DNA from: Takakia lepidozioides
Lineage: Eukaryota; Plantae; Bryophyta
NCBI GenBank assembly: GCA_030704615.1
Contig: CM060734.1
Location: 28,644,001 to 28,708,000 of the forward strand
DNA: 64,000 nt
Direction: 5' to 3'
Part shown: in pieces, positions 8,889 to 48,397 of the stretch
Layout: every line of letters starts with the position of its first letter
Numbering within the stretch: position 1 is the stretch's first letter
Translations under genes and position numbers: made by a program
The notes under the pieces: generated by a model
The model's input: only the letters and a program-made list of their open reading frames with translations
The model's database searches: none
Told to the model about the DNA's origin: nothing

Positions 8889-8904
8889 GGGAGGAGCAGC
8901 AGGA

Positions 8905-9185: not shown

Positions 9186-9600
9186 GTGGGGGGGCTGCTA
9201 TTTCATGAGCCATGAGCCATGAGCGGCATGAGCCATGAGCAGAGTCGTAAGTGTCGAAAAAAACATGAGCAGGACTATTTTCCGGAAATGAGTGTCCGCG
9301 GGAATAGGGTTTAGGGTGTCACGGTCATAGGGGGAGAAGGACCTCCCGATGAAGGAGGTTCGGCAATGTTTTTTAGAATTACATATTGAAAGGCAATGTT
9401 TCGCGAATGGTAGGGTGGTACTGCTCTGTACAATGGGGGCCCATTTCAGCCTACCAGCCACTTGCAAAATCCACCCACACTCCCAATCCCAAACGAAATA
9501 AGGAATGATGCATTCCGGGAACGATGGATATAGAATAGAACAAAAAGAGGGCACAATGGGGTTTTTATTGATCCACATGAATTGCATTTGAAGCAAGTCT

Positions 9601-10326
9601 TGTCGCGGCCCTTTGCCTTGAGGGCAGGGGGGGTCGGGACACATGAGGGGCTGCCCCTGTGGTGGGGGCAGCGGCAGCGATAGGTGAGGGGGCTGAAGCA
9701 CCCTTGAGTGCCCAAGGCACTCAGGGAAGCGGAGGCGCTCACTAGGTGGAGCCCCGCACACCGGGTTGCGGTGGGGGTGGCTCCACAAGGGGTGGTGGTA
9801 GCTTAGTGGGACTTAGTGGGGGTGGCATAGGACTCACCATGGGGGCGGAGACCTCGTGGTGGGAGTCGTGGGGAGTCTTGGGACTCATCACGGTCCATAG
9901 GGGCCGTGGTGAGCGGGCCAAGACTCACCGCGACTCACCACCGGGAGTCGAGGGTTTTCGTGGTGGTTCGCCATAAAATGGCATGGCTGGTTGTGGAACC
10001 CCGCGGACAGCTACAGAAGTATATATAGGGAGTAGTAACCCCGAGAACGGTGCAAGCCCGTTGGTGACCAAAAACTAGTGAGTAAGCGAGCGAGCCAGAA
10101 AGCGACCAAAGAGTGGGGAGCTATTCCGGACTGCCATCTACCAAAGGGAATTCTCCTAGTCCCAATTAGGTGGAGGGTTTAGAGGGAGGCAAAGGGGGGA
10201 CCGTTATGTCCCGGTGAGCAGCCGAAGCTCCAAGTTGGCCGGGCGGCCAGGTTGGGAGTCAGGCGCGCGCATCAAAGCGAGTAACTATGACTTGAAGGGG
10301 AGCTTACCGAAGTGAGGTGCGCGACA
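9601..10326 (+). repeat. 5' LTR
   Basis: TGTCGC...GCGACA followed by a tRNA-iMet-type PBS. Confidence 0.97.
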
Positions 10327-10381
10327 CTTGGTATCAGAGCTCAGAGTTCAGTACGCGATCGTCCTTGGGATTGGCCTCATC

Positions 10382-12022
10382 ATGGGGTCGGGCAAGCCGA
10401 AGCGAAAGCGGAACGGCCCAAAAGATGATGATCCCGGTGAGCCCGATGGGGGCAGCGTGTCACCGAGGCGGCCGTTTGAGGAAGCGATGCATGTTTCCGA
10501 AAACGAGGCCGCCCAAGAGCGGGAGGAATCCGAGGAGTCGGAGCCCGAGGAATCCTTGAGAGCTCCGACAAACCAAGAGATGCCTCCCATGCCGGCAGCC
10601 TTTTGGGAAGGGTTGTTGGCGCAGTTTGGCGGGACGTTGAAAGACGTGTTGAAGGCGGCTAATGCCACTTCCACTAAGGCAAAGTTTAAGGTGAAGCCTA
10701 AGGAACCCGACACCTTCAAAGGCGTCCGAAATCGGAAGGCACTCAACACCTGGCTCTTGGAGCTAGAGCAGTACTTCCAGGCGGCCAAGTTGAGTGACGA
10801 GGATCGGGTGGAAGTGGCTCCCACCTATTTGAGGGGCTATGCTCAACAATGGTGGCAGAAACGCCTTCACGACCGAGGTCCAAGCCCGGAAACCTTGAAC
10901 TGGAGTGGGTTCAAGGAATTGATGAAGAGACAGTTTGTGCCCCTCAACGCGTCCTGGCTCGCCCGGGACAAGATGAGGAATCTGAAGCAAACAGATGACA
11001 TTCGGGGATATGTCCAGGCTTTCAATGTGCTGTTGCTCGAAGTCGCGGACATGGCAGAACCAGAAATGGTCTTCAACTTTGTGGCGGGACTGGCCCCATG
11101 GGCCAGGCGGAAGTTGGAGGAGAAGCCACCCGAGACTTTGAACGAGGCTATTGAGAGGGCTGAATGTTTCTCAGATGTCCCTAGGGGTGAAAGACAAGGC
11201 CGTATGGAGCTGAACCACAAGAAGATTCGGCGGGAAGGTGACTCCTTCTGACCGGAAAAGAAGTGGGATAGGCCACGCGGCGAAAATGGCACGTGGAAAT
11301 CAAAGGGAGGGCCTTCACACGTCAAGGCGGCACCCGGTGCTTCGAAAGGAAAAGCGGGTGGAGCGGCTTATGGCGGACAGAAGGCGACCTTTGATGGAGT
11401 GTGTTTCAATTGGGGGGAGCCCGGGCACATGGCCAAGAAGTGCACGAAGCCCCGGCAATTGAACATGACTCGGGCGACCACGGAGCTGTCGGAAGATACC
11501 ATCAGTCGCTTGGTGGAAGCGGTGGTCGGCAGGACTTGCAAGGCAGGCAAATTTTCTTGTGAGCTGTATCAGGAAACTGGCGCCTTACGAAAAGGGAGTT
11601 AGTTATTGTTCGTGGATGGGATAATATCCGGAACTAATGTGTCGTTGTTGGTGGACACAGGAGCGTCGCACTCCTTCATGACACCGGCAACGGCACAAAA
11701 GCTGGGACTCCCGACAAGTGACGTGGGGGCCTCTATTGAGGTGCATTCTGCCAAAGGAGAACCACAGTTGGCGACAAGGTTGGCGATTGATGTTCCTCTT
11801 CAACTGGGGAGTTGGGAAGGACGCGAGAACTTCACCATCTGCGAGATCGATGGAGTGGATCTCATTTTGGGGATGACCTTTTTGAGAATATCCGGAGCGG
11901 TCATAGATGGCCGCAAGAGAGTAGTCACGCTGCCATGTGGGAATGGTGGCGAGGTTTTACGAGTGTCTGAAACGCCCAAATCCGTGGGAGGGCAAATAAA
12001 CCTTCTGTCAGCAAAGGAGTAG
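10382..12022 (+). pseudogene. gag: gag, zinc knuckle and aspartic protease (in-frame stops at about 11249, 11600 and 12020)
   Basis: Retrotransposon gag motif, CFNxGEPGHMAKKC knuckle, [11 protein letters not shown]. Confidence 0.92.
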
Positions 12023-12025
12023 GCC

Positions 12026-14944
12026 GTGGAGGAGGCACACGAGCCCCAGTTTTTGCTTTACGTTAGAGAAGTGAAAGGAGAAGGCGATGGGGAGCCGAGC
12101 CCAGATTGGATCAAGGGGATTTTGGAGAAATACCAGGATGTGATGCCGGAGGATTTACCAAGCGGCTTGCCACCGCGAAGAGGAGTTGACCACAAGATTG
12201 AGGTGATACCGGGATCGGAACCGCCTGCCAAGGCGCCCTACCGGTTGAGCCACAGAGAGTTGGTCGAGCTGAAGACTCAGCTCAAGGATCTAATGTCAAA
12301 GGGGTACATCTGGCCGAGTAAGTCACCTTACGGAGCCCCGGTGCTATTTGCAGACAAGAAGGATGGGACGCTGCGGATGTGTGTCGTTTACAGGGCTCTG
12401 AATAAGGTGACTATCAAAAACCGGTACCCTTTGCCAAGGATCGACGACCTCTTCGATCGGTTGGCAGGAGCGAAGTATTTCAGCCGGATCGACTTACGCT
12501 CCGGCTATCACCAAATTCGGGTGGCGGAAGGAGATGAGGAGAAGACCGCGTGTAGGATAAGGTATGGTTCATATGAGTTCTTGGTGATGCCTTTTGGGCT
12601 CACCAATGCACCAGCGACATTTAGCACGCTGATGAACAGCCTTTTCCAGGAGTGGTTGGATGACTTTGTGATCGTGTACATCGACGACATCTTAGTGTAC
12701 TCGAAAACAAAGGAAGAGCACCTAGAGCACCTCAAAAGGGTGTTCCAGAAATTGCGGGAAGGGAAGCTGTATGCCAAAGCTTCAAAGTGCGAATTTGGGG
12801 TCACAAAAGTGGAGTTCATGGGGCATGTGATTACACAGGATGGGATCAAAATGGATGACAGAAAGGTGAGGGCGATCTTGGACTGGGAGCCTCCGATTTT
12901 GGTCCCGGGAGTGCGATCCTTCCTAGGACTCGCCTCCTATTACCGGAAGTATGTGAGAAATTTCGCCAAGATCGCGGGGCCGCTGTCGGACCTTCTGTGT
13001 AAATCCAAAGTCTGGGTATGGAACACATTTTGTGGCCAAGCTTTTGCTGAATTGAAGCAGCGGATGACGAAAGCTCCAGTCTTGAAAATCCCGGAGTTCG
13101 ATCGTCCGTTTGAGATTCATACAGATGCATCGGACTTCGCGATTGGGGGTGTTCTTATGCAAGATGGACGTCCAGTGGCTTACGAAAGTAAGAAACTGAA
13201 TGAAGTGGAGCGACAGTGGCCGACGCACGAAAAAGAGATGAAGGCGGTGGTGCATTGCCTTGAGCTCTGGCGCCACTATGTTGGTTCCAACCCAGTGAAG
13301 ATGTTCACGGACAATGTCACGGTGAAGTATTTTGCCACGCAGCCCAAGTTGTCCCCAAAACAACTTAGGTGGCAAGATACTTTGGCAGTGTTCGACGTGG
13401 ATATCCAGTACAAACCGGGACGGGACAATGTGGTGGCCGATGCTTTAAGTAGAAAGCAGCAGCTCTTGTTGGTGTACAAGGGCGAGACGGTGCTCCAAAG
13501 GAAGATCCGGAAGGCTTGCCGGAAGGATGAGCTGGCGAAGTCCGTGATGCAGGACTTGAGGATGGGGGTTAAATCGCAATTCCACTTGCAAAATGGACTG
13601 CTCCGGTATAAGCAAAAATGTCTCTACGTGCCGAAGGGAGGGATCAGAGATAGCCTCTTGAGAGAATGCCATGATAGCCCGCTTGCGGGCCACGGCGGAG
13701 CCAAGCGCACTGCGGCACTCTTGAAGAAAGAGTATTTCTGGCCCAAACTGAGGGAGGAGGCAGAGGAGTATGTCAAGACATGCACCACATGCCAACAAAA
13801 CCGGAGCGAGTACAAAAAGCAAGCGGGGCTGTTACAACCCTTGCCGATTCCAGAGGGGACTTGGGAAAGCGTCTCGATGGATTTCATGACTACTATGCCG
13901 CTGTCGAAAGGATTCGATGCAATCATGGTGGTGGTAGATAGGTTCAGTAAAATGGGCCATTTCATCCCCACCAAGGAGATGGCAACGGCGCAAGAGACAG
14001 GGCGACTTTACTTCGCCCACGTCTTAAAGCATCATGGAGTCCCGAAGGATATTGTCTCGGACCGCGATCCAAAGTTTACGAGTAAATTCTGGACGGCACT
14101 TTGGAAGAAGATGGGGACGAGGCTGAAGATGAGCACCGCCTTCCGACCTACGACGGACGGCCAAACGGAAAGAGTGAATTCCGTAGTGAAGCAATTCTTG
14201 CGGAATTATGTGTCGGCAGACCAATCAGACTGGATGGAACACTTAGACGCGGCAGAGTTCTGTTATAATAACACAGAACACTCCGCAACGGGAGTTTCCC
14301 CTTTCGTATTGGTCTATGGAAAAGCACCTCTGGTGCCGACAAGTTGGGCCACCCAGGACGTTGAGGAACCGGCAGTAGCGGCGGTACTGGAAGAACGCGA
14401 GCGTTTGTTGAAGCTCGCAAAGTACAATATTGCCAAAGCTAGGAAACGCTATGAAAGGCAGGCGAATCGGAAGCGGAGGGAAGTGAAGTTTGAGGCAGGC
14501 ACAGAGGTCTGGTTGAACATCAAGAATTTCCGACTACCTCCGGAAGTGAGTCCGAAGTTCGTACCTCCGTATGCGGGACCCTTTTGCATTCGAAAGGTTA
14601 TGAATGAGGATGTGTATGAATTGGAGCTGCCGGCAAACAGCAAGGTGCACCTAGTATTCCATGTCTCCCTTTTGAAACCTTACTTCAAAGATGAAGCGCG
14701 TCCGAATCGACATCAAGTGTTGCGTCCGCCACCTATGCTGTTGGATCATGAAAATGAACCTGAGTACGAGGTGGAGGCAATACTTAAGTCGAGGAGGTTC
14801 AGGAACCAAGAAACGGAGTATCTCGTCAAATGGAAGGGCTATCATCATGTGGAGGCATCTTGGGTGCGTGCCTCAGAAATGGGAAACGCATCCGAGGCGG
14901 TTGCAGCTTTCGAAGGGCGACCTCAAAAGCGGAAGAAGCGTTGA
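12026..14944 (+). CDS. pol: pol: RT, RNase H, integrase and C-terminal chromodomain
   Basis: [20 protein letters not shown] integrase, AGPF (GPY/F-like), YEVEAIL...YLVKWKGY chromodomain; open for 972 aa. Confidence 0.96.
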
Positions 14945-15852
14945 TGGGGACATCAACCTTGGAGCGTGGGGGAGGAAATGCATGCTTAGCCCAGTTTAGC
15001 TAGCTCAGGAATCCGATTGCAAAAACTTGTATTATACAAAAATTTGTTATAAAGGAAATGGGTTCCAAATATTGTGCGTCCTATTGTGTTTGGAAAGGTG
15101 ATGCATGGTGTGGTTGGCTAGTGTGTAGAATGCATGCTAGCTTACAAAAAGTGGGAGAGGTAAATTGGGTTAATCGTGTTTTAGCGCAGTGCCAAAATCG
15201 GGTGACTCCCATCCAAGGGGCAAGGAAACTTGCGCCTTCTTTGGGAGTTCACGTGCTAGTGCGCACCTGGCGCGTGCGCGTACTATAACTGCGCTACCGA
15301 GGGGGGTTGCCTTGTAGTGCGGGCTAACGCGGAAGCTACGTGCTTCCGTTCATATACTATAATCGTGTAGCCTCGGGACGAAGTCGTAGTGCGGCTTCGG
15401 CGTGTTCCCGTACCTCAGGCCAGCATTCCAAGGCGGACCCAATTGTAGTGATTGGGGCGCACGGTTGGTTCAAGGTTATCTTCCTAGTCAAAGAGGGTTC
15501 CAGGTGAACCCTTGCTCAAGGTGATGCCGAAAGCGGCATCATGAGCGATCGCAAGCAATGTTGTTGCAGTAAGGCGATTCGATCCTCGGGGAGGATCGTT
15601 CCTTGGCCTTGAAGTAGGCCAAGAAGAGTGCACTGGGAGGAGCTGGAGAGGCTCCACCCTTGGCCGGGACTTGGAGGAAGTCGGCCGAACTAGCTAGTGG
15701 AGAGTAGAGTCAAGTGTGGGGTTTGGTTCTTTGCCATGGGACGCCATGGTGCGGAAACAAACTCCTTGATGTGGGACGCCACAACTTGGATGTTCGTTTC
15801 TACAAAATGGACAAGTCGATGAGGACATCGACTCCCTGTTGGTAGGGGTGTG

Positions 15853-16580
15853 TGTCGCGGCCCTTTGCCTTGAGGGCAGGGGGGGTCGGGACACATAAGG
15901 GGCTGCCCCTGTGGTGGGGGCAGCGGCAGCGATAGGTGAGGGGGGCTGAAGCACCCTTGAGTGCCCAAGGCACTCAGGGAAGCGGAGGCGCTCACTAGGT
16001 GGAGCCCCGCACACCGGGTTGCGGTGGGGGTGGCTCCACAAGGGGTGGTGGTAGCTTAGTGGGACTTAGTGGGGGTGGCATAGGACTCACCATGGGGGCG
16101 GAGACCTCGTGGTGGGAGTCGTGGGGAGTCTTGGGACTCATCACGGTCCATAGGGGCCGTGGTGAGCGGGCCAAGACTCACCGCGACTCACCACCGGGAG
16201 TCGAGGGTTTTCGTGGTGGTTCGCCATAAAATGGCATGGCTAGTTGTGGAACCCCCGCGGACAGCTACAGAAGTATATATAGGGAGTAGTAACCCCGAGA
16301 ACGGTGCAAGCCCGTTGGTGACCAAAAACTAGTGAGTAAGCGAGCGAGCCGGAAAGCGACCAAAGAGTGGGGAGCTGTTCCGGACTGCCATCTACCAAAG
16401 GGAATTCTCCTAGTCCCAATTAGGTGGAGGGTTTAGAGGGAGGCGAAGGGGGGACCGTTATGTCCCGGTGAGCAGCCAAAACTCCAAGTTGGCCGGGCGG
16501 CCAGGTTGGGAGTCAGGCGCGCGCATCAAAGCGAGTAACTATGACTTGAAGGGGAGCTTACCGAAGTGAGGTGCGCGACA
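15853..16580 (+). repeat. 3' LTR
   Basis: Direct repeat of 9601-10326, preceded by a purine-rich PPT. Confidence 0.97.
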
Positions 16581-16637
16581 CGTCTACTGTGCTAATTGTG
16601 CAAACAAATCTTTAGCCCTGTGCCTTCTGAATACAAG

Positions 16638-17201
16638 TCACGTTGTCAATGGGACTTCGACTGCTCTGAAAACTAGCTCATGAGTCATCGGGCTCCTCCA
16701 GGTAAACTGGATTGCAGCCGTTGTACCGCCCCTATTGATGTTCACCACAATGTCGTGCCCTTCAAACATACCACCATCGAATATGGAAAGCTTCACGTTT
16801 TCGTCGTCCACACCAATGCAAATGTCCCCATACAATGGAGAAGAGGAGCGCACTCCTTCAGGAGTATAAGTCTCTCCGATGGAGTCCACCCACGTCCACT
16901 GGCAGCAGTTCCACCACAACAGCATAGCAGTGCGCATTCTTCTGCATGGGTGCCCGTCGTAGCTGGGAAAATCGGAATCAAGGATGCACAGGAGCCACGG
17001 ACTCCTCAGACCAAGATCGTCACCCCGCTCGAAGGCGTACTAGCCTGGGATATACTCAAAAGCGGACAATGTTTCCACATTCGAACCAGTATCTTCTGTG
17101 TAATCTGTGTACCAGATAACAATGTCTCCCGATGTGGCCGAATACATTGCATAATCGAAGCCTCCATAAGGGCAGTCATCCCGGTTCCGGAAGCACGGCA
17201 T
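16638..17201 (-). pseudogene. unknown protein of about 190 aa, paralog 1 (one internal TAG at 17040)
   Basis: MPCFRNRDDCPYGGFDYAM...WWNCCQWT...YGDI...DGGMFEGHDIVV...ELVFRAVEVP aligns with 17758-18326. Confidence 0.7.
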
Positions 17202-17757
17202 CCTTGCAAAGGAGGACCTGAGGACGTCTTTGATGCCGATGACAATGACCTTGCGGACAGCAACGAAGCCCTTAGATTTTCGAAATGATGAGAAGCGGAA
17301 GAGCAGTGCGGGCTCCAATAATGGAGCATCTGGGTCACACGTACCCACCAATCATCATGTAACGTGTTCATCACGCCAGCGGTGGATGAACCGATACCTC
17401 TTTCTCATCCACGGGGTATAGTTTGAAATCTGCCACCGAAGTCCATCCCCCGGATGGAAATTCGGCGCCGCATTTACATTGAAGGGGGGATTGACTTCGT
17501 CATCTCGAGTGGCTATAGGCCCACCTGGCACTTACTGCCCATACTTTGCATGGCAGGGAAGGAAACTGAAACGACTACATTCATGGAGCAGCCAATCTTC
17601 ATCCGTGCAGGTTCCTGTCGGGGGGACATTTAAATGTGCCCTGGAGTGTTTGTGAGGAATTGCAGCGTTTGCTTGAATTTCTTCTAGCCACCGCGCTGCT
17701 GCCTCCTCTATCCGGGAGTTGCTGTCATTGAGCGTACTCCGCTACTCTTTTTCAAGG

Positions 17758-18326
17758 ATGTCGTGCCGCCGAAATCCTGCTGACTGCCCTTATCATGGCC
17801 ACGATTATGCTATGAATCAGGAGACATCATTGTCTGGCTCTCTGTTTTCACAAACGCTTCTGGAATCAAGCGGGAGTCTTTTTGCGCAATGGAGTATCTG
17901 GAGGGCTATTACCGCTTTGAGCGGGGTGAGGGCGAGGGTCAATGCAGTCCGTGGGTCCTGAAAATTGTTGACCTCGATATACCAAGGTGGAATGGGATGC
18001 CGGACAGATCACGCACGGCCTCACTTTGGCGCTGGAACTGCTGCCAATGGACCAGGGAGGACGGCACTGGGGAAAACTATATTCGTGGAGTTCACTCCGC
18101 TTTTCCAGTGTATGGAGACATTCGGCTGAGTTGCGAAGACGAATCGCACGGGCACAGGAGGCCCACAGTGACCTTGTCAATGTATGATGGTGGTACGATT
18201 GATGGGCATGACATTGTCGTCACCTCCACCAAGGGCACCATGTCGACCGCATTGCAGTTTACCTCGAGGTACCGCATCAGTAATGAGCTTGTTTTGAGGG
18301 CTATCGAAGTTCCGTCGACTTGGTGA
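17758..18326 (+). pseudogene. unknown protein of about 190 aa, paralog 2 (frameshift before 17889)
   Basis: MSCRRNPADCPYHGHDYAM...WRWNCCQWT...YGDI...DGGTIDGHDIVV...ELVLRAIEVP. Confidence 0.7.
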
Positions 18327-18603
18327 CGCCCATATAGAAGGAGAAAGGGCTTAGATTTGTCTGGAGTTGCTAAATGTGAGACACCGTGTTCGATCAATAA
18401 AACAACCCATCGTACCTCACTTCTGTGTGCTTGTGTTTCATCGTGTTCAAGAACTGTCGTAATTGGCCCACTGTTTACAATTTGAGGTCTCATTTCTACA
18501 ATGTGTCTGTCCATATGAATGTACCGGAGTCAGCGATATCAGAGTCCTAAGGTGAAGAAAATCCATCTATGAGTAAAAGGAAACATGTACACGCCGAAGC
18601 TCA

Positions 18604-19376
18604 GAAATTCGGCACCGCATTTCATTTTTCTCCATGCAGCGATTTCTGGCAGCTCCCTTTCCTCCGTTGTCGTCGTAACGGAAATGCTGTACATCATTTC
18701 ATTTCCTGACATGGCATTACCATACTTCGAATTTGAAATGCGGCGCCGCATTTCCATATTGGACCTTGAATTGTCCGAGCATGTCCAGTCGCTAATGCTT
18801 GTCCATGTCCATACTTGAAATGCGCCACCGCATTTCCATGTCCGTCATCGAAATTTCGTACCGGCCAATGAAATGCGGCACCGCATTTCCGGAGAGCACA
18901 ATGGAATGCGGTGCCACATTTCCGTCGAAGGGTCTGGAATTGGACAAACAACGATGTCCGTTTTGGAAATGCGGCGCCGCATTTCCATGTACGTCATCGA
19001 AATTTCTTATTGGACAATGGAATGCGGTGCCGCATTCCCGTCTAGCATCATGGAATGGGGAGCCGCATTTCTGTCGATGGGTCTACAGTTGGAAAAATGT
19101 CCATCTCCAAAAGGTAAATGCGGCACCGCATTTCCATGTTCGACCTCCGCATTTCCATTTACCTCCATGGAAGGAGCTGGCAATCGGCAAAACTGCCGTG
19201 TTGGAACGGAAATGCGGCACCGCATTTCTGTTTGTCCGAACAGTTTCTGATGTCCAAACCATGAAACGGAAAATTGTTCTTGCCCCGGTTTTGGAAATGC
19301 GGTGCCGCATTTCCAAAGGAGGTTTTTGCAGTTGCCACATTTCCGTTCCGACATTGAAATGCGGTGCCGCATTTCA
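18604..19376. repeat. array of about 12 palindromes GAAATGCGGCGCCGCATTTC (MULE A, downstream of the MTase gene)
   Basis: Copies at about 18604, 18735, 18817, 18870, 18903, 18966, 19019, 19052, 19115, 19209, 19294 and 19356. Confidence 0.9.
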
Positions 19377-19512
19377 GATTTTGGGAGGGACCAGGTTTGG
19401 ACGATGTTGTCGTTGAGAAGCACATGGGAGAGGGGACATGAAGGATAGGGAGAATTTCCTTTATATACTTTGGAATAGAATTTAAATGTACAGAGAGTTC
19501 ATTAAAATTCTA

Positions 19513-22500
19513 TTAATCTTGAAAATCATCACTATCGTCGTCCTGTCCTTGAATGTCCCGCTCCGCCTCCACCCCGTCATTGTCTTTCTCATCTCCAGCG
19601 GACTGCTCGTTGGCCAGGCTTTCGAAAATCCCATCTTCACCTTGCGGAACCGACCATCTCACCTCCGTTGGCTCGTCATCCTCCCTGTCTGCATCGCTCT
19701 CATCCGCTGAATCACATATGAACTTTCGCACCCGTCTACCTGTCTCAGCTGTTGCCAACTCTTTCCTTATCCTTCTGTCCTCCCTAGCCCTCTCCAAAAT
19801 CTGCTCTACTTTACTGGGATTCTCACATCGTCTAATCGCTGTATTTGCGAGTTTAGCTGCATAACTAGGAAGGGAGTAGTCCTTCACCGGGCTTGTCGTG
19901 AAGTCGGCCCTCGCAAAGAACGGGACATTCTTCCTGGCAGGAAGTGTAGGCCCTACATGTTTCGACCCGGATCCTGGAATCCTGCACATAACAATCACCA
20001 ACGAGACCAATGAGAACCACAGTCCAGAAATGCGTTTGACAAAAAATCACCCAGAAGGCTTTGCAAACTTACAATGTTTGCACTCACTCGTATTCCGGGT
20101 TCTCCTCGGCATCAATGTCCACTGTATCTTCCTCCGACTCCGACGAATCCGAGGAGTCTTTGGCTTCGATGGGAGCCTTCACATTCCGTTGCAGCCCTTC
20201 CAGATGGGATCCCCAGACGGATGTGTCCTCCTCGTAGGCAAAGAGGTGCCGGTTGGAAAACCGCCCAGCCCACATTGAGGCACCTGTTACAATGCCATCC
20301 ACACATTATGACATGGCCCTTCAGATGTTGCGAATGAAAGCATAACGAGAATTTGCAGAACAACATACAACAAGATTATGCATACCTGTCCCACACATGA
20401 GGTCGAGCACTGTGCCCTCCACATCCGTGCATGTCTCCATAATTGTCTGAATGAAGGCAGGGCTCCGAGTGTGTGAATACCGCAGGGGTTCAGTTGAAGT
20501 GAGGCTATGAGGGAGAAGTTCCGTGGGAACGTTGTTGAACAAGACGTCGTAATCGATGGGGTCGCAGTTCGGGTCAACCAACAATCCCTCCTTCCGGAAA
20601 GCAAAGGTGGAGTTCTCCTTCACAAAGCAGTATGCATCAAACTGCTTCGTCTGCATACACAGTGGGGAACGATTAGAAATCGAATGCGGCACCGCATTTC
20701 AAAACTCCAAAGAAAATGAAAGGACAAGTGCCAATGTCGTAATTACCTTCTTCCCTTCCGACCGAAGGCCCAATGTGTTGATGCACGTCCACTTCTTCTT
20801 CAGAATTGGGACGGCGCTCTTGCGGGTCCACTTCGCAATTCCTGTCTGCGTGTTTTTGCCTCTGCTCGCCAGGACAACCACACAGCCTCTGTCGTCCAAC
20901 ACCATGCGGGCGAGCCCGAATCCTTTCTTCCAAAAGTCCTCGGAGTACCTGTTCCAAGATGGCAAAGCTTGCAGTCCTTCCACAGGCTCTCTGTCCGGAA
21001 TATCCAAGATGATCATATCGCAAGACCACTCGGTGGCATTTCCGCCCCTCCTGCAATCCTTGTCTACACACACCCTCTCAAAGAACGAGACCATCTTCAG
21101 AAACCCAGGGGTGTTGGAAGGCTCTTCGGTAGCCGCCTTCTTCAGTGCTTTGCCCTTCAGACCCTCCATGGTCTTCATGTATGCCAACTTCGCTGCCCAT
21201 CCATCCAAAGTCGCCAAGAAACTCTCATTCACACACTGGACTACTGTATCGGGATCCACTTTTGGCCTCTTCATTTCCACCGGCTCGAAAGGGTGCCCCC
21301 CCGGGGGGTTGAAGAGTGCCTTCTTTGCCGATAGTTCTCGTCCCTCTCGTGACAACGGTGGGCACAGGGGATTTCGGCTGCGTCTCGGGGGGTGGGCTGG
21401 TTGCAAAGTCTCCATCGGAGTCCTCTTCCTCACCCTCTACCTGCACTATCTGTTTTTGCTTCTTCGTTTTCTTGGGTGTCACAACTGCTACTCCTTGCTG
21501 GCGAGTCCGCTTCTTGGACCCCTTCTGTTGAGCCTGCACAGCTGCATCCACCGTCTTCTGTGCCATCTCAGCTGCCTTTCTGGATTGTTCCAGAGCAGCA
21601 GCTTCCTTTGCCGACTCTGGCCGAGCAGGGACACGTCTTTCCTTTATCTTCTCTTCTGCTTTCGCGTGCAGATCTTTCTCAGACTCGTCAACAATTCCGC
21701 CAGACATGTCCAGGTACCACGGGCATCCAACCAGATGCGCGGCATGCCATTGTTTCTGCATCTTGGGTGTGTAGACACAGCTTGGGCCCGCCACGGTCCA
21801 AGCCATGAAGAACGGGGGCTCTTGAGCCAGGGCCCCTCTCTGAAGAAGCACGTATTTCATATACCTGCAGGGCAGTCAGCATGCATGAGCAAAAGTTGAG
21901 ACCAACGTACTCGCAGAGTGCAACCGAAAACTTAAAATGCGAATGCGGTGCTGCATTTCCCAAACAAACCTCATAACCAGGCTTCGCATACAAGGACAGC
22001 TGGGCTTCACCTGTAAACAATTCGCATTGCAGCTTTTCCCGCTCCCTCTTGATATATAAACTCCACGCTCCTTCTTGCTGTCTGCAGCTCCCAAGCGAAG
22101 AGGTTGTCCTTGTACGCACATCTGAAACGTGTCACGTAGTCTTCCAATGTCTGTGTTCCATCCCATTTGACGTACAAGCCGAACGAATTTGTATGCATTA
22201 CGACTTGCTCCTTCGCATTCGTCATTACCTGCGATTCCCACATGCATTGTCACGTAGCAGTTCAGGGAATTCATTTCAGAAAAGCAAATCTGGGGAAGTA
22301 CCTTGAATTACCTGGAACCACCAAGTCATGCGGTTGAGCCACACATCCACTGCAGGGTCGGAAACTTCGAGTGGAAAAGATCACATTGTCCAGAAGAGTG
22401 GCTATTGCTAGGAAGGAACTTCAGTGCATTGAAACATCACCTTCTCTTTCGCTTCAACACATGCCGTTGAGAGGTGATGCAGTTTCTCCAACTGCATGGT

Positions 22501-24662
22501 CGGCTGCATGGTCCGAGAATAGTGTTTTGCAATCTCGGGGATGAAGTCCTTTCCAAGTGTCGGATCTGCAATGGCCACCAGCTTCACAAGCTTTGACTTG
22601 TATTTTGTTCTGGACTTGACCCCGGCTTTCTTCAAGTGCTCAGTCAATGACTGCAACGTTTTGACCTGCCCCTCACTTTCCATGAAGAAGCGTTTGGCAT
22701 GGGCCAAATCCAGCTTGATGTTTGACTGCCAACAAAAACATGCAGAAGCGTTACATTCGATTCATGTGGAAAGATTACTGAAAATTGGGGAAGGATGAGC
22801 AAAGGGAAATGAGAGGACGACTTACTTCGTATATCACCTCCACCATTCCATCCATAGTGAGACAATACCATGTCCGGTCTGTTTTTGCCACGGCTTTCTG
22901 AATGAGCTCGGGCTCCAGCATTTCCGCAAACATGTGCGGATCAGTGAGACCAGTTTTCCTCACCCTGTACAGCATATGTGCCATGTGGGTATGCACGTAC
23001 GCATTTTCAGTGACCCTGCAAGGCACACTCTCCAGTTCAGTCCACGAAAGCACGGAAATAAAACAGATTGGAAACCGAAATGCGGCATCGCATTTCGAAC
23101 GTGCTTGGGAGGGTATGAGTATCTTATGAGTTGAGGTCCGCCATGGCATTCTTGAGCAGGGAGGAGTCTGCCGCCTTCACCTTGAGGATGACACACTCCA
23201 CCATGTAATGCCAACCAATGTGCTTGGCATGGTTCTACTTGGTGTACTCCCACCAGGCGAGAAGTCGGTGATTCCCGTCCCACACAAAGAACATTTTACC
23301 TGACATATGGCCGAAGTTTGGATCACCCTTCAGCGTTGCCTCGAATTCGTCGTTGCGAGTGTGCCAGTGGGTATCCCATGTTGACAATTCATCCGCAATG
23401 GGTCCACGAGATTCGCCGTCCTCATTCTCAAGGGAAACGTAGAAGGCTGACGAACCTAGACGGTACCCTTCTCGAAATGCGAACTTGAGCTTATCCACAT
23501 CTCCGGGAAGTGCCTGCTTGACGATGGGAAGGGAGACCATGCAACAGAGTGGGATTCGAAGAGTCCGCTGGAATACCCTGCTGCCCAGAACTCTGCCAAT
23601 GCTACTATGTGTCTCCTCCAACATTGTATCCGCTGCACTTTGGAATTCCTCCGGAGACATTTCTGCTGGTGGCGGTAGGGGCTGAGCAGCTGGAGCATCC
23701 CCAACTGGAGCTGCACTATGGGGAATCTTTGTGGACAATTCTGCAATTGCAGAGGCCTCCTCCGGGCCTGCAGTATTATGAAGATCTTCCTCAACGGTGG
23801 TCAGGTCTTGCTGCAAACGTTGAGAGGTAGCACCCTCCTCCGGTACTAGATCGCCGAAATCGGTCGATCCCATTGCCTTCGCTGCAGCAGAGACGCCCCC
23901 AACATCACGAGGCTGGAAATCAAGCAGGAATTGGGCTTCAGCTCGTGGAATCGGTTTTGCGGGAGACTGCTCCGCCCTCCCCCTGATTGCCTTCTGCTTC
24001 CTCATTCTTGCAGGTGAAGGTGTCTGCTGCAATTGAATCTGCTTCATTCGCCTGGGTGGGGGGGAAACGGCCTGGTCTGGTTCAGAAACAAGTTGAAGGA
24101 CGGGCTGCTTCTTCTTCGTCTTTGTTGGAGAAGGGCTAGACCCCTGCAGGCGATTCTCCATGACCTTCGAACGCGAGTCGCTCTCTGGGGCTTTGAACTG
24201 CAAAGACTTGCCCTTCGAAGCCGCGTCCTTGAAACGCACAGGGCTAGGCCCGGCAGGAAGACCCGTGCTTGTGGATCGGCTGGGTGTGCGTGCTGCAGCT
24301 AGCTCCACGGACTTTGCATGCGGCTCTTCGGATTCCTGCGATCCCTCCAGCACGTCCACCTTTCCGGTTAGGCATGCAAACATCTTCTGCATTCAAGTCT
24401 CTTAGCATACAGTCTAAGAATTGCAGAAGAAAAATGAGGCGGGTTTCGGTGCTCGATCAGCTGGCGAATCCTGATAGCACGGAGCTCTCACTGGTGGCTG
24501 GGTTGCCTGCGTGGCCTGATGCTGCGAGATGACAATCTCCTCCTGTAGACGCATCTGCTTCCTCCCCTTCGGCATTGGCCTACGTCCGAAGTACAATTTG
24601 CAGAGCTTGCGACGATGTCTCTTCTCTGGTGCACGCACTCCCTCCCTCTCAGGTTCGAGCAT
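19513..24662 (-). pseudogene. multi-exon ParB/Srx-like plus beta-class amino-DNA-methyltransferase-like gene (MULE A)
   Basis: FFVWDGNHRLLAW (ParB-like, about 23240-23290); CDMIILDIPD (motif-IV position, about 21000); RSPAFIQTIMETC..GTVLDLMCGTG|ASMWAGRFSNRHLFAYEED (motifs X-I-II); acidic tail; GT-AG introns shared with copy B; premature TAG at 23235. Confidence 0.8.
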
Positions 24663-25002
24663 AAGAAGAACAGAGACAGGGAAAAGGGGCGATGGAAAGG
24701 GCGCGAGAGGGGTGACTGAGGAGACACGACAAAAGAAGATGAAACGGCGGTGATGCACCACTTGGGTTTGAAAGGGTTGGACGAAAGTGTCTCCTCGTGG
24801 ACTTTGCGTCATTACGAAATTCGAATCGTTCAGGGTACGCCTGCCGTCCGAAAAACAAACATCATTATCCAACGGTCAGGCCGTGCCGCCTCATGCCACT
24901 TCAGTCAGATAGAGTGCAGACATGTGCCGCAATTCCGTTGCTCCACGTGTTCACATTTCATGGCATTTCCGTCCCAGCGTCTGATGAGTTGGAGTGAAAA
25001 TG

Positions 25003-26612
25003 CAAATGCGGCGCCGCATTTCCGTTAAGTACCATCACGAAGCTACACATCCGTACTTGTTGGAAGCATTTCCGTTCCACCTTCACATACCTTAGTTGTT
25101 GAACAGAAATACGGTGCCGCATTTCCATCCCACAGCTCCATGCCTGAGATTCAAAAGGGAAATGCGGCGCCGCATTTCCGTTCTGGAATGTCGAAAGGTG
25201 CGATTTCGGACGGAAATGCGGCACAACATTTCAGTTCCAGTGGTTCATGATTTTCAATCTGAACGGAAATGTGGTACCGCATTTCCGTTCCACCTTCACA
25301 TACCTTAGTTGATGAACGGAAATGCCATGCCACATTTCCGTTCGGGAAAGTATAAAGGTCTCACCTGAACGGAAATGCGGTGCCGCATTTCCGGTCTGGA
25401 AAGTTTGAAGGTCTCACATGGATGGAACTGCGGCACCGCATTTCCGTCCCACAGCTCCAGGCCTCATATACAAAACGGAAATGCGGCGCCGCATTTCCGT
25501 TCTGGAATGTCGGAAGGTGCGACTCGGACGGAAATGCGGTGCCGCATTTCAGTTCCGATGGTTCACGATTTTCAGTCAGAACGGAAATGCGGTACCGCAT
25601 TTCTGTTCTGGAGAGTACGAAGGTCTCAAACGGACGGAAATGCGGTGCAAAATTTTTGTCCCTCCGCTCCATGCCTGAGATAGAAAATGGAAATGCGGCG
25701 CCGCATTTCCGTTCTGGTATGTCGGAAGGTGCGACTCGGACGGAAATGCGGTACCGCATTTCCGTTCTGAAGAGTATGGAGGTCTTAACCCGTCGGAAAT
25801 GCGCTGCAGCATTTCCGTCACTCGGCTCCATGCCTCAGATACAAAACGGAAATGCGGCGCCGCATTTCCGTTCTGGAATGTCGGAAGGTGCGACTTGGAC
25901 GGAAATGCGGTGCCACATTTCAGTTCCGATGGTTCACGATTTTCAGTCAGAACGGAAATGCGGTACCGCATTTCCGTTCTGGAGAGTATGAAGGTCTTAA
26001 CCGGTCGGAAATGCGCTGCAGCATTTCCGTCACTCGGCTCTATGCCTCAGATACAAAACAAAAATGAGGCGCCACATTTCCGTTCTGGAATGTCGGAAGG
26101 TGCGACTCGGACGGAAATGCGGTGCTGCATTTCAGTTCCGATGGTTCACAATTTTCAGTCAGAACGGAAATGCGGTACCGCATTTCCGTTCTGGAGAGTA
26201 TGAAGGTCTCACCCGGACAGAAATGCGGTGCAACATTTCTATCCCTCAGCTCCATGCGTCAGATACAAAACGGAAATGCGGCGCCGCATTTCCGTTCTGG
26301 TATGTCGGATGGTACGACTCGGTTGGAAATGCGGTGCCGCATTTCAGTTCCCATGGTTCATGATTCTCAATCAGAACGGAAATGCGGTACCGCATTTCCG
26401 TTCCACCTTCACATACCATGCTTGTTGGATGGAAATGCGTTACCGCATTTCCGTTCTGGAGAGTATAAAGGTTTCCTCCGGACGGAAACTCGATGCAGGT
26501 TTTCCGTCGCACTGGTGCATGACTAAGATGCAAAACGGAAATGCGGCGCCGTATTTCCGTCCAACAGCAATCGAAAGTATCACTCCGGACGGAAATGCGG
26601 AACCTCATTTCC
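25003..26612. repeat. 53-bp-period array of about 30 palindromes (CG)GAAATGCGGCGCCGCATTTC(CG), with a 212-bp higher-order unit
   Basis: Palindrome starts at 25372, 25425, 25478, 25531 ... 26220, 26273, 26326, 26379; lies between the divergent MTase and transposase genes. Confidence 0.95.
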
Positions 26613-27006
26613 GCATGCGGAACCTGAATGGGTTGCATTGTTCCGAAACAACACAATTGCGGCCTGTCTTGATGAGCACAACTTGGTTGTCTGACCGTTT
26701 TAACTAACAGTCTTGGCACTTGTCAGTGCGAACGTTCATGACTGCACCGAGAATACTGCTGGATCCACCCTCAGGAGAAACTGTCAGGAGATGTTATTTC
26801 GTCGCCGAATCGGCCATCATTGTCATACTTACTGGCTATGGAATCACACCTCCCACCTTCATGCATGTAGCTTGAAACAATACTTTCCACTTCAATGTGT
26901 GATTTCCAATCGTCGATGGACTCCGCAGATCCAGTTACATGGTGCATGTGAGCCTTGGTCTGTCGCTATACTGAACCTCGCACTTGCCAACTTCGTGCGG
27001 TCTTCG

Positions 27007-30000
27007 ATGGCTCCGAATTCCTACGCTATAGTTTGCTATCCTCCGCAACTTGGGAGAGCCTGGATCCCAAACGAGGGAGGACTTTGCAGAGTGACTGAAA
27101 CTTACCTTTGTTCCAAATTCAAGCTCAAACCGGGCACAGTTTATTTGGAAGAAGAAAGGAAGGATGTTCCTGGACAGGTTGACGAGACCATTGTCGTGCT
27201 AGGTAACGACGGAGGTTGCAGAATCCAATGGCACGTACCCCCATCAGACACCATCCTGTACCGAGTTGTGGGAATGCCCATTCCCTTTCCACATCAGTCG
27301 TTGCCCACACCATCCACAAAGGAGTCCGGAAACCGACAGGCGGCCACTGCCAACAGAGAGGTATGCAACGATAATCATTCCCGACCTGGACCGTCAAGAC
27401 CCTCCATAGCTTCTCGCGTGGACGTATTCGACATTTCCGACGAGGAAGATGAGTGCATTGAGGTCCCCATGTCCTCCACACGGTCGTTCAAATCCGACAT
27501 GGACGTCTCTGCAGGTGCTACGCATGTACCCTCGAGCATAACTCCAACCCGGTCCATTGTGCAGCTCCTACGGCAACATCACCTCGATGGTTCTCGCTCC
27601 GAGCTGGCTGCTCTCGACTATGCCAAATTTCCAGTCAGGAGGTAACGTATCTGCCTCCCGAAGTCGATGGCAATGTCATCTTTGAGTTTCCACCTGTTAC
27701 TTCGTCAAACAAAGCCTCAGGGATGTTAACAGACATGGATCGAAAGCATGACGGACACCCCTGGTGTGTGACGAAGACCAGTAGCACGAAAATTGCTGAT
27801 GGTGTTCGTGTACGATACGTCCTCTGTGCGGGGAAGCTGAGGTGCCTCAATCCCGCCTGCTTCCACTTTCTCTCCAAAGGAGGGCGGAGAAACGAGACGG
27901 ATTGGATTGGCATACCGCATCATCCATTCATTGTCTCCAGCCAAGCTCCTGTGGGTACTTTCAAGTGCGCACATTGCAAAGAACCACCGACGTGCATGTC
28001 CATATGTAGAGCCAAGCAATATTACGTAATCCATTTGCTCCCGGACTTGACTAGAGCTTGCATACACATTGGGGTCCACTGCCACCCCTTGGCGAGAGGC
28101 AACATGCGTGAGGTTGTGCAGGAAGCACACAACATCATAAAAGAGGAGGTGAAATTGAGCCCCGGAGCCAGACCAAAGCACATTCAGCTGAAGGTAGCCC
28201 ACAAGATTGCTCTTGGCAAAATCATGTCTGAAGATGGTTCAGACCGGGTGCCCTTGAACGAAGAGGAGATGCTTGACCTGTTGGAGTCCGTCTCGCACGT
28301 TTGTAGTCCGAATGTGCGGAATCACATCGTATCTTGCAGGCAGGCGTTCGGCCGGGGGTCGGACATGCACTCAATCCTGGAGGTGAAACGAATGACTAGA
28401 TATGACTACATCCAAGGTAGCAGGTTTCCAGGGCAAGACAGCAAATCCGATCGTTGTTACATTTTTAAAATGTCGACGTGTGGGCCTGGGAGTGGAGTCG
28501 ACTTGGTCACTCGCATGACAACTGGAAACTTGTCGAATGCTTGGGTGATGTTTGATCACATCAAGCAAATTACAAACCATCAGTGGGTGACTATGGGTGC
28601 GCATGTTTATGACTATCACTCCAAGAGGCTCATGACGATTGCAATCTACGAGATGAAAGGGGAGGACACACAGTCGGAGATGCATCTGTGGGAGGGCATA
28701 AACGAGCAGATGGCAAGGGCGGGATTGCCAGAGCCCAATTTCAGGGGATTCATGGCAGACAACGCTCAGGCCAACTGGGCAGCGGTGCGGCGTGTGTACG
28801 GTGAGGACCCCAATGTTCCAATGGAGGGGAAAGAGAGATCCTGTGGATTCCATTGGATGCAGAGTCTATCTCACTACACTACCAAATTTGTTACTAGCTC
28901 ATTCCAGGCTGAACACCGTGTCCTTTGTACGGCGTGGAAGGATGCACCCACATTTGATGACGCGGAGGTTAAATTTGCTATCATCGAGGCTTGGTGGAAC
29001 ACGTCAGGTGCAGTGGAGACAACCAATCTGGGAGCCTTGCACAGCTGGTTGGGGTGGTGGCATTTCCGGTATCGACAGTTCGGACAGTACATGCGGGAGG
29101 TATGATGCTGTCATTTTCGTGCAATTGTCTTTCTATTACGGACCTTTCCATTGGTTCCTCACCATTGTTTGTGTCATTGTAGGAGCGGTGCTTAGATTCC
29201 GACACGGACATGCCGAACACGAATATGGCAGAATCAGTGCACTCCTCCTGGCGAGTGTCTTCTGCCACACATCTGGTGGACGTAGTGACGGCCACAACGG
29301 AGGACATCGACAAAGCAATCATGCAGCAAGCCACGTACTACAAGTTCCTGAGCGGGAAACAATGGGGCTTTGGGCCGGACAGGGAGGAATTGTTGGTACG
29401 AACAGCTTCGAGGTCGAAGAATCCACTAAAATGGGCGACAGCATTGCGAGAGAAGATCAAAGGGACGCCTCTGCACCGCAGAGGTGAGCACCTAGAGGGG
29501 GACGTCCGTACTTGCCCTGTGAGGCGGAGGATTGAAGAGGAACCCAGGTGCGAAGAGGATTCCTGGAGATCCGACAGGAACATTCGGACAGCACCTCGAG
29601 GGCCCGTCATGTTGCCGCACAATGTGTCTTCCAGCAGTGGAAGCCTAAGAAATTCCAGATCGCCATCGCCTTCAAGCGGGGATTCCGTGCGAGAAATTCC
29701 CACCGCTCGCTTGCCCCAGATTCCGCCTGCTGTTATGCAGTATGACCAAGCCATTGTGGAGACGACTGTGTCTGCGTCACAGTGGAGAATTGCTCGCACA
29801 AAGCCGTCGTTTCGAGGCAGGTGTTCCGCAATTCGAGTGGATACATGGCAACGTTGTTTAGAGATGATAAGGAGGAATCCAGATGGTGCTATCTCTGCTC
29901 CTACTTTTACAGGAAGATTTGTCCATGCAAAGTTTGCGGAGGCGACAACCACCCAGTTCTGGTTCTGCAGGCACGACATTATAACTTGCGTGTATGGAAA

Positions 30001-30612
30001 GCCCAAGTATGGCATACAAACAATGCCAGAGGCTCCCCCGGTGTGGCCGGTGGAACCAGGCTGCGATCTGAGTCAGGTTGAGGCCGACGCCCTTACCGCC
30101 GCAGGATTTCGGATGGTGCAGCGCACTGACGTCCCCAGACAACCATTTCCGCTTCCACAGCCTCCACCACCGACCCCTATGAGAGCAAGAACAATGGACC
30201 CGACGGCTCTAAGCATCCTACACACCGTTGGGGGAAACCGAAGAGGCGGCGACCTCCCTCAAAAGTGAACGAGACAAGGATGGGGAATGCACTTCGGATG
30301 AACTGTACAATCCAGAGCTCGACAGAAGTGCCCCCACCAGGCTTCGGGCGTGTGTATTAGATGGCCACGGCAGGCTCAGCTGTTCGCAATGAGGTGTACA
30401 CCATCATTATTTCAGAATTATCCACCTGCAATTGCACCGACTTCCAGATCATGGCGAACAAGGGGGCATCATACTGCCCTTGCAAGCATCTGTACTATGT
30501 GTACCTAAAGAGACTCCGGTGTAATTCCACAACTCATCACTTCATACATGCACCAGGGTTGAGCCCCCAAGAGGTGCACACTCTTCTGAATATGGATCCA
30601 GGGGACCAGTGA
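27007..30612 (+). pseudogene. MULE transposase (GCM-like Zn domain, DDE core, SWIM finger), copy A
   Basis: CAGKLRC..C..CAHC..C..HIGVHCHP; WVMFD, FMADN, CGFHW, TNMAES; SWIM CNCTDF...CPCKH; intron 29100-29182; frameshifts near 27640 and 30230; stop at 30358. Confidence 0.88.
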
Positions 30613-31641
30613 CCTTGGCTTGCGGTCCCAACACTATGGTACGCCCATCCTTTTCGGATAGTAGAACTGTACTGCTGCAAGTAGCTCTGACTCTGGCCAC
30701 AGAAAGGTCCGACTTATGTCTTGCCTACCAGTAACCTGTTTTGCTCGAACTAAGATAATATTATGTCATTCACTCGTGTTTCCACGTGCATGTATTTTTG
30801 TGTGTTGGAGGGTTCCTGTTTTTCTGCTCTCCCAAACTTTGCTTTCCTCATTCGACCCCCGGCAAGGAAATGCGGCGCCGCATTTCCAAGTAACGTCGTA
30901 GGTACTGGTAGATGCGGCATTCACCAACACCAAACAATCCAGAAATTTCGCACGTGCGAACCCTAATGCGGCACCGCATTTCCCAGTTGAGTCGCAAACC
31001 TTTCCCGCCAAATACTCGAAGATGACAGAATTGTGCAGACTCTATTGGTTCAATCGCGGCAAAAGGGTCAGCTTCATTCCAATGTTAAGGCATGTAAAAT
31101 CGCGGAATACTCTATACAGGCCAGTATGCGACGTCATTTTGCCGTGATATACTAGATTTCTCGTTGCACGGTCATTCATTTCCATGAGCGGATCTAAAAA
31201 ACCATGAGCGGAGTTGTTACTGACGACATATCTTCGCCGCATTACAGGATCTGGAACTTCCAAAAACGGCAAGGTCAAATAAAAAACTATTATTTTAATA
31301 CTTGTTTAATCTGCCGCATTTCCAAATTTGGAGGAGTCCACTCATGAAATCCGCGTGTCTTAGACTTCGGCTCACCGCTCATGCGGCTGATGGCTCATGG
31401 CTCATGGTTTCTGTTCATGAAATAGTAAACCTCGATGCGTGGCATTCGTGGAAGAGAGTTGGCTAGGAGGGGCCCATGGAAAGGCGTCATAAAGTTTTGC
31501 CTTTGTTCCATGGAAACCGCTGGTAAACCTTTGAACCCTACAATGGGTGAAAGACCTTGTGAAGCAAGCCAAGTCTGTTGTGAAGTTCATCCGAAACCAC
31601 CACATGCCTTTGGCAATATACAGGAGGCACGAACCAAAATA

Positions 31642-37234: not shown

Positions 37235-37467
37235 GAGGTTTGCTATTTCATGAGCATGAGCGGCATGAGCGGAGTAGTAAGACAATCGGTTTTCATGAGC
37301 AGAAGTACAAATTTCGAAAATAAAAAACAATAAAAAACAATAATTTAATGCAATGTGTCAGGAAAAACAAATATATTATTCGGCCCCTTGAAGGGAAAAT
37401 TGCAATTTTGACAGTTGTGCTCATGATATTTCATCTTCCGCTCATGCCAATTCCCAGCGACATGTAC

Positions 37468-37785
37468 AAATATGGCGCCGAATTTCGCGGTAATAGGTCT
37501 CTCTGGCGAAAAATGGTGCCGAATTCCGCGGCTATAGGTCCCCTCATGACAGGTAATTCGGCGCCATTTTTCCAGTGCATGTTCGGACTTAGCCAGTTTT
37601 CGGCGCAAAATAGGGAAATTCAGCGCCATTTTTCCAGACACTGTACCAGTGCATGTTGGGACTTAGCCAGTTTTCGGCCCAAAAAAGAGAAATTTGGCGC
37701 CATTTTCCCAGACACAGGTACCAGTGCATGTTGGGACTTAGCCAGTTTTCGGCCCCAAAAAGAGAAATTCGGCGCCATTTTTCCA
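37468..37785. repeat. 74-75-bp-period repeat with GAAATTCGGCGCCATTTT
   Basis: Motif starts at 37615, 37689 and 37764; inverted copies upstream. Confidence 0.85.
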
Positions 37786-37941
37786 TAAATGGCCCCACAA
37801 CTGCTTCTGTTGGATCTCAGTTTGAATGGAATATTGCCTCATTCCAGGAGTTTTGGGGTGCATTTCATTACACTGCAAAAAAAAATCTGATACAGCAAAA
37901 TGCAATTGAAAATATCCATATGGAGGATTCCTTTTGCCCCA

Positions 37942-40900: not shown

Positions 40901-40990
40901 CGAACTTGCTGTAGTCCAGCCCGGCCAGCTCCCCGAATGAAGTCGCCTCGGGCGTAGAGGCCGGCACGTGTTCGACAGAGAGCATCCCCT
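37942..40990 (-). pseudogene. MULE transposase copy B (N-terminus apparently deleted)
   Basis: Collinear with copy A: DRKHDGHPWC, WVMFDH, FMADN, CGFHF, TTNMAKS, SWIM CNCTDF...PCKH; intron 39361-39446 at the same position; frameshifts. Confidence 0.88.
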
Positions 40991-40995
40991 GGATT

Positions 40996-41536: not shown

Positions 41537-41743
41537 TCGATTTTCATCCGACATGGAGGGCTTCATCCGACATTTAATTGCGCAATTGGGCAATAAATGT
41601 CCACCGCCATCCGTTTTCATTCGGGCTGGCGACACATGGCTTCCTGGATACGTACCCTAAATCTGATGCTAATCTTGGCTTAACATGCTATTCGAGGCAT
41701 GTACCCCAGAAACGGAGATCTTTTTCCATTTTGGCTGGGACTT

Positions 41744-48167: not shown

Positions 48168-48397
48168 TGCCCATTCCAGCTATGACAGTTAGAACACACT
48201 TGTATAGACGTGGCTTGCCACAAAATTTGCAATAAAATGTTGCATTTCAAGTCCACTGGTGCCACATTCCAACTTCACATGACCCTATTTCCGTGCCTCC
48301 TAACCCTATTTCCGTGGACTCACAATGGTCTGCTCATGCTTTTTTTTTTTCCGCTCATGCTCATGCCGCTCATGAAATAGCAGCCCACGTTGAAGGG

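Follow-up and report, generated by a model that had tools for sequence, protein, structure and literature searches.

A predicted ParB-like/methyltransferase-fold fusion gene with an aromatic-free motif IV in Mutator-like elements of Takakia lepidozioides

Accessory proteins that act against silencing are known from plant Mutator-like elements, and, separately, bacterial amino-methyltransferases are known as host genes of seed-free plants. The targets of VANC are reported to be tandem repeats that lie in introns and upstream of the transposase gene and that differ between VANDAL elements (PMC5735166). Marchantia MpDN4MT1 and Adineta N4CMT are described as host genes with an intact TSPPY/SPPY motif that write 4mC (10.1101/2021.02.12.428880, PMC8885841, PMC10406627). 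Iyer et al. describe clades of eukaryotic N6A methyltransferases, few of them in land plants, and judge the N6A-methyltransferase domain of the DIRS1 retrotransposon likely inactive from substitutions of its catalytic residues (PMC4738411).

The window analyzed here is a 64-kb stretch of Takakia lepidozioides DNA (assembly GCA_030704615.1, contig CM060734.1, positions 28,644,001 to 28,708,000; coordinates below count from its first base), and it contains three copies, A, B, and C, of a gene for a predicted methyltransferase-fold domain. Element 2 (37235..48388), which carries gene B, is a complete Mutator-like element of 11.2 kb flanked by an exact 9-bp target duplication, GTTGAAGGG (37226-37234 / 48389-48397). 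Element 1 (9187..31433) carries gene A, and its ends match the terminal repeats of element 2; just five of the nine bases of its duplication are visible, beside another repeat, and a Ty3/gypsy element is inserted at 9601-16581. Short terminal inverted repeats are found at all four ends of the two elements. Each element has a transposase-like gene head-to-head with the fusion gene, at 27462..30600 (plus strand) in element 1, divergent from gene A, and at 37945..41105 (minus strand) in element 2, where a C-terminal SWIM finger was detected below the cut-off (PF04434, E 0.0015). The transposase-like proteins are 72% identical over 487 amino acids and gave no MULE match in Pfam, NCBIfam, or PDB. 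They have a D...D...CxxH pattern, which we take to be Mutator-type, and because of this pattern, the ends, and the 9-bp duplication, we assign the elements as Mutator-like. In one DNA sequencing run, 44,314 contigs fell within the 12-kb stretch, most of which is covered even by two very small assemblies; this points to a high-copy family. Element 1 also contains two inverted copies of a further gene (16641-17132, minus strand, and 17784-18323, plus strand; 48% identical over 170 amino acids), which has no Pfam or PHROG match and no copy in element 2. Insertion of element 2 has disrupted an unannotated frame at 36590-37357 (minus strand).

The window is repeat-rich, and Ty3/gypsy copies, a hAT piece, and a C5 methylase are the main Pfam matches of the 93 reading frames scanned; the pieces of the methyltransferase-fold gene gave none. 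Three gypsy copies, 91 to 96% identical, have a common segment that is inverted or displaced (7431-7597, 11419-11585, 62698-62861), and at 8174-8920 both strands can be read as a reverse transcriptase fragment. A 120-bp tandem repeat is present twice in opposite orientation (8904-9185 and 55310-55576), one copy adjoining the left end of element 1. The hAT transposase piece (PF05699) is at 32932-34182 (plus strand). The C5 DNA methylase (PF00145, E 1e-11; 53578-54549) lies between protease-like and reverse-transcriptase-like frames in a decayed retroelement (52750-55312, plus strand), an arrangement resembling that of DNMT-bearing retrotransposons, which have been reported from streptophytes (cited in PMC12344493).

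Gene A (19513..24392, minus strand) is a multi-exon gene whose predicted product comprises a ParB-like region, a helical region, and a beta-class methyltransferase-fold domain. It has introns and is collinear with the Adiantum nelumboides protein MCO5564165.1 (P0010), which matches copy A in order at 23426-23100, 22641-22435, and 21112-20864. This collinearity places the methyltransferase domain at the end of one long gene, from about 24392 to 19513, that starts with the ParB-like exon (23127..23570, minus strand), which contains a DGNHR motif and is 59% identical to that of gene B. GT-AG introns were identified at 20746-20651 and 20385-20284. A third GT-AG intron, of 83 nt (22229..22311, minus strand), is skipped by one contig of a related copy, from a sequencing run guessed to be RNA that does not cover the methyltransferase exons. 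The initial annotation had treated 20084..21030 as one stretch and had ended copy A at 20084; the DIPD and DLMCGTG motifs of copy A sit instead in separate exons, and the stop at 20084 shares bases with a GTGAGT splice donor at 20087. One more exon, at 19981-19513, is 52% identical to that of gene B over 128 codons, so that, with this donor, protein A probably runs past 20084. Gene B (43291..48167, plus strand) extends from its ParB-like exon (43291-43722) to the last exon, and copy C (58640..60383, minus strand) is a third and more distant copy, represented by a degenerate 3' part, upstream of which a gypsy element starts at 60896. All three copies are broken: A by an in-frame stop at 23235-23237 and a frameshift near 21332, B by a frameshift just before DIPD and a TAG two codons after it, and C by several frameshifts.

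The ParB-like label of the N-terminal exon is weak and serves just as a lead. The gene B exon matched PHROG 1033 at E 0.013 and Atlas clusters at 0.93-0.94, with ParB_N in 11% or DUF3723 in 31% of members, and the ParB-like exon gave no Pfam or PDB match. The likeness of the exon at 43291-43722 (plus strand) to fungal DUF3723 clusters is by language-model features only. DUF3723 is known as an accessory gene of Starships; our paper search returned nothing connecting it in that setting with the ParB-like exon. Upstream of the ParB-like exon is a short basic frame (24417-24875, minus strand, in element 1; 41687-41890, plus strand, in element 2), 40% identical over 72 amino acids, which may be the true first exon.

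The DIPD motif and the glycine loops that had been claimed for all three copies are present as placed. DIPD is encoded at 20993-21004 (minus strand) in copy A, where it aligns to DPPY, at 46685-46696 (plus strand) in copy B, and at 59539-59550 (minus strand) in copy C. The motif I glycine loop follows about 600 nt downstream in each copy, as DLMCGTG at 20384-20404 (minus strand) in A, with the intron starting inside the last Gly codon, DLTCGTG at 47277-47297 (plus strand) in B, and DLSVSTG at 58827 (minus strand) in C. LDIPD occurs three times in the six frames of the window, compared with a mean of 0.07 and a maximum of one in 60 shuffles of the window triplets. The DIPD codons (A, GAT ATT CCG GAC; B, GAC ATT CCA GAT; C, GAC ATC CCG GAT) differ by synonymous changes alone. 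Of the motif contexts quoted in the initial annotation, DIPD itself stood in A, B, and C, and the following Gly did not extend to copy A, which reads ILDIPDR. An NPPY in copy C (58982) was considered as a relocated motif IV and rejected because it aligns to DPNC/DAAV in A and B, in the target-recognition region.

Modeling and alignment of relatives identify DIPD as the predicted motif IV of a beta-class DNA amino-methyltransferase fold, since hhalign puts the motif on the DPPY site and its first Asp ends a strand in the models, in agreement with the place originally proposed for it. The AlphaFold model of the domain of P0010, the fern relative, was built from a 25-row alignment and has a pLDDT of 78.9 and a pTM of 0.80, and the first Asp of the motif, D61, ends the strand 55-61. 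In the first model, of P0017, which includes intron-derived residues and is reliable in its N-terminal half only, the corresponding D59 ends the strand 53-59. Both models represent relatives rather than the spliced protein of the window, and the motif closes a strand in both, as its assignment to motif IV had predicted. The best Foldseek matches of the P0010 model were M1.HpyAVI (E 5e-10), CcrM, BceJIV, and MboIIA. By VIA, the same model aligned with M.BceJIV at Z 16.6 (rmsd 3.3, 201 aligned), MboIIA at 16.5, HpyAVI at 15.7, and CcrM at 15.6, and the first row that was neither beta-class nor MT-A70 was at Z 6.9. With hhalign, a phage beta-class enzyme was matched at a probability of 94.9, with D-l-P-t over DPPY and WN over WD; profile A2 against a poor four-sequence alignment gave a probability of 1.5, and profile A1 had no match among PDB sequences. 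The motif order is permuted, with IV ahead of X and I. Against PF01555, P0017 scored 29.8 bits (cut-off 26.7) and P0014 gave an E of 0.06, and there was no match for P0010 or for the single-exon methyltransferase pieces of the window. DIPD also resembles the D-x-P-x-P-W motif of tRNA m1A58 methyltransferases, a kinship that we rejected on a Z of 5.5 against 16.6 for the beta class. The ancestor was probably an N6-adenine DNA methyltransferase rather than a 4mC or RNA enzyme, to judge from the Asp that opens the motif and from the closest structures, those of BceJIV, MboIIA, HpyAVI, and CcrM.

Conservation of motif IV was tabulated from the 25 of 27 alignment rows that span it, which include copies A and C of the window; the rows, many of them decayed fragments, are not independent of one another, and P0029 is probably misaligned. 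Position 1 is D in 22 rows, N in 2, and G in 1, and position 3 is P in 18 of the 25. Position 2 is C (8 rows), V (7), L (5), I (4), or F (1), and position 4 is T (8), D (7), N (4), S (2), E (2), I (1), or L (1). No aromatic residue was found at position 4 in any of the 25 rows or in six further proteins, and neither DPPY nor DIPY occurs among them, none of these copies being demonstrably intact and active. The domain was accordingly filed as derived from the PF01555 family rather than as a canonical member. The conserved Asp with special chemistry that had been suggested does not hold at the level of the family, where two of the seven rows with Asp at position 4 are copies A and C themselves and Thr is commoner. 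Because position 4 varies across the rows, the family trait, as judged from this alignment, is the loss of the aromatic, and the terminal Asp is a trait of the window lineage and its near kin.

The residues of the SAM pocket are mostly kept, namely the first Asp, the Pro, the Trp, the glycine loop, and the ribose-binding acid. The Trp in the loop after motif IV is invariant. GxG and the motif II acid are kept in A, B, and P0010, the acid being Glu in A and B; copy C lacks the first Gly of the glycine loop, P0017 lacks the motif II acid, and the Phe of FxGxG is kept only in P0017 and absent in most copies. In M1.HpyAVI, D29 of DPPY and E216 are both reported to be needed for SAM binding (PMC5173035). 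In N4CMT, Pro109 and Trp142 are described as lining the adenine pocket, and Tyr110 is modeled as stacking on the base (PMC10406627). The invariant Trp of the transposon family is probably the counterpart of N4CMT Trp142.

A full HMMER search found 13 relatives and a profile search 16, four of which were already known. The Mutator-like family with the fusion gene is likely one of seed-free plants, given its introns and given that the only named homologues are from the fern A. nelumboides. A word-based protein search found no long relative, yet P0010 was found by the full HMMER search; viral contigs, prokaryotic genomes, and the first metagenome scan yielded no relative. Metagenome contigs contain 18 AT-rich, decayed loci, likely plant host DNA, of which six have the ParB-like exon upstream and one (L013, which also has the ParB-like exon) a divergent transposase. 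Arrays with a 116-bp period, unrelated to the palindromes of the window, lie upstream of the gene in three of three of these loci, which were picked for long flanks and a ParB-like exon, and in one (L008) also inside the gene. Within the window, the comparison of A with B shows purifying selection on the protein in six exons: pN is 0.21-0.31 and pS 0.60-0.84 in local alignments, from which the rows "B after stop" (9 codons) and "pre" (20 codons) were dropped as out of frame. Protein identity between A and B is 52-62% with synonymous sites saturated, and the transposases of elements 1 and 2 give a pN of 0.17 and a pS of 0.75.

Both elements contain arrays of short palindromes. The central array of element 1 (25002..26613), of 22-bp palindromes at 53-bp spacing, lies between the divergent genes; a second cluster is downstream of gene A (18603..19376), and single palindromes are found in introns of gene A at 20680, 21939, and 23076. 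Element 2 has another variant of the motif in its central array (40995..41536); other clusters lie at 37466-37785 and, within an intron of gene B, at 45006-45722. There are 46 sites in element 1 and 20 of the variant in element 2, and none elsewhere in the window at up to five mismatches. Array sites are not independent of one another. In element 1, 77 of 92 flanking CpGs remain intact, compared with 12 of 46 central ones, and 32 of the 34 central changes give TG, CA, or TA; element 2 differs, with 18 of 20 central and 25 of 40 flanking CpGs intact. The retention of flanking CpGs in element 1 is as expected if half-sites were selected for binding, a pattern that element 2 lacks. The observed/expected CpG ratio, an indirect measure of 5mC, is 0.63-0.81 in the element genes and 0.54-0.85 in neighboring repeats, so that CpG loss is like that of the repeats and no anti-silencing footprint is seen.

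The reading that we tentatively prefer, which falls somewhat short of an even chance and draws on motif conservation, models, and analogy, is that the domain binds SAM and is catalytically crippled, and that the protein binds the arrays of its element and keeps that element active. A ParB-like/methyltransferase fusion protein made by the spliced gene of the Mutator-like element would sit as a dimer on the palindrome half-sites of its own element and spread from the arrays through its ParB-like domain. Its methyltransferase-fold domain would still bind SAM, because the pocket residues are kept, and would have lost efficient base methylation, because the stacking aromatic is absent and position 4 varies freely. 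The outcome would be anti-silencing or activating, by analogy with VANDAL/VANC. The altered SAM motifs, the lack of CpG protection, the weak ParB label, and the CpG pattern of element 2 count against this reading, and an enzyme that is still active would account equally well for the long-term retention of the SAM-pocket residues and the catalytic Asp.

Such an enzyme, a DNA amino-methyltransferase that writes 6mA or 4mC on its own repeats with another aromatic stacking on the flipped base, is an unlikely alternative with several points in its favor: the catalytic Asp in 22 of 25 rows, the invariant Trp after motif IV, the glycine loop and motif II acid of A and B, and strong purifying selection. 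Bacterial beta-class enzymes have, moreover, become active eukaryotic 4mC writers in Marchantia and Adineta, as reported in the papers cited above. RlmJ is described as an active adenine methyltransferase with a Trp that stacks in place of the motif IV Tyr (PMC3814359), a precedent that leaves room for activity of the transposon domain. Against this, the active site is a loose one, accepting seven residues at position 4 and five at position 2; the WD to which the invariant Trp aligns already stands beside the Tyr in ordinary beta-class enzymes; and the first Asp is also reported to be needed for SAM binding alone (PMC5173035).

It is unlikely that the arrays are bound by the transposase and that the fusion protein, with no sequence-specific binding of its own, is a transposition helper acting in synapsis, target capture, or copy segregation. 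The AtMu1 transposase is reported to activate cognate copies alone (bioRxiv 10.64898/2026.08.24.746577), and if a Mutator transposase activates its own copies the arrays may serve the transposase; the ParB-like N-terminus, though weak, would also suit a helper. Palindromes do occur near the transposase-side ends (30866 and 30962 in element 1; 37466-37763 in element 2), but most lie well inside the elements, far from the termini, either in the space that separates the two genes or in introns of the fusion gene, and the terminal repeats differ from them in sequence. We also regard as improbable a phage-derived ParB-clamp/methyltransferase with a rebuilt active site, which would load on the palindromes, spread from there, and deposit 6mA or 4mC as a private mark to counter 5mC silencing by the host, giving the transposon an amino-methylation system of its own. 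An active methyltransferase that has switched to something other than a base, for instance a protein side chain, would use SAM and the Asp and dispense with a stacking residue, in line with a kept pocket and a lost aromatic; it is very unlikely, the fold and loops still being those of nucleic-acid beta-class enzymes and nothing positive speaking for it. That the gene is functionless captured cargo and DIPD a decayed DPPY is hardly tenable and already largely refuted by the selection between A and B, since, although every copy in the window and the majority of those in databases are broken or fragmentary, synonymous sites are saturated at 52-62% protein identity, the DIPD changes are all synonymous, and the same gene and layout occur in fern and AT-rich lineages, with one spliced contig.

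The preferred reading, a SAM-binding regulator that has lost efficient catalysis, would represent an independent route to a transposon regulator from a pseudo-enzyme; if the domain is active, it breaks the rule of the motif IV aromatic and could be tested as a source of 6mA or 4mC in plant transposons. In either case, the two themes with which we began are brought together by a transposon family whose domain appears to be under selection across lineages as distant as a fern and an AT-rich one. A full-text search, which covered few subscription papers, returned no description of a Mutator-borne ParB-methyltransferase gene, so a beta-class methyltransferase-fold fusion that has a degenerate motif IV and is carried by a transposon appears to be new within the literature searched. 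No clade matching the family was seen among those of PMC4738411 in the part of that paper covered here, and its supplement may list members.

The closest described systems each share part of this arrangement. VANC of Arabidopsis VANDAL is likewise an accessory gene of a Mutator-like element with element-specific motifs in tandem arrays placed, as in the window, in introns and upstream of the transposase; its motif binding and demethylation have been demonstrated (PMC5735166), whereas those of the transposon fusion protein are predicted by analogy. VANC carries DUF1985 and DUF287, for which neither the window nor the relatives gave a Pfam match. MpDN4MT1 and N4CMT, likened here by description only, are also beta-class enzymes that eukaryotes, including one seed-free plant, acquired from bacteria. 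The ordinary beta-class enzymes of PF01555 (M.BceJIV, M.MboIIA, M1.HpyAVI, CcrM) have in common with the transposon domain the fold, the order of IV before X and I, the first Asp and Pro of motif IV, the WD/WN loop, and, as kept in A, B, and P0010, the glycine loop and the motif II acid. The transposon domain differs from them in lacking the position 4 aromatic, the position 2 Pro, and mostly the Phe of FxGxG, and its gene in having an insertion before the catalytic strand, introns, a ParB-like fusion, and a transposon carrier. Phage ParB-methyltransferase loci, a plausible donor type, are described as combining a beta-class domain and a long N-terminal part in one chain (PMC4738411). The example from Wolbachia phage WO, QHJ75445.1, encoded beside the terminase, has a canonical DPPY, unlike the DIPD family. 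Its N-terminal part, presumed to be ParB-like from its motifs, gave no significant alignment with the ParB-like exon of the window (E 0.07), so descent from such a phage protein is not established. The DIRS1 domain is likewise a transposon-borne amino-methyltransferase that is likely inactive, but it belongs to group 2, is probably derived from PCIF1, and lies in a retroelement polyprotein, whereas the DIPD domain is of the permuted beta class and is carried by a DNA transposon (PMC4738411).
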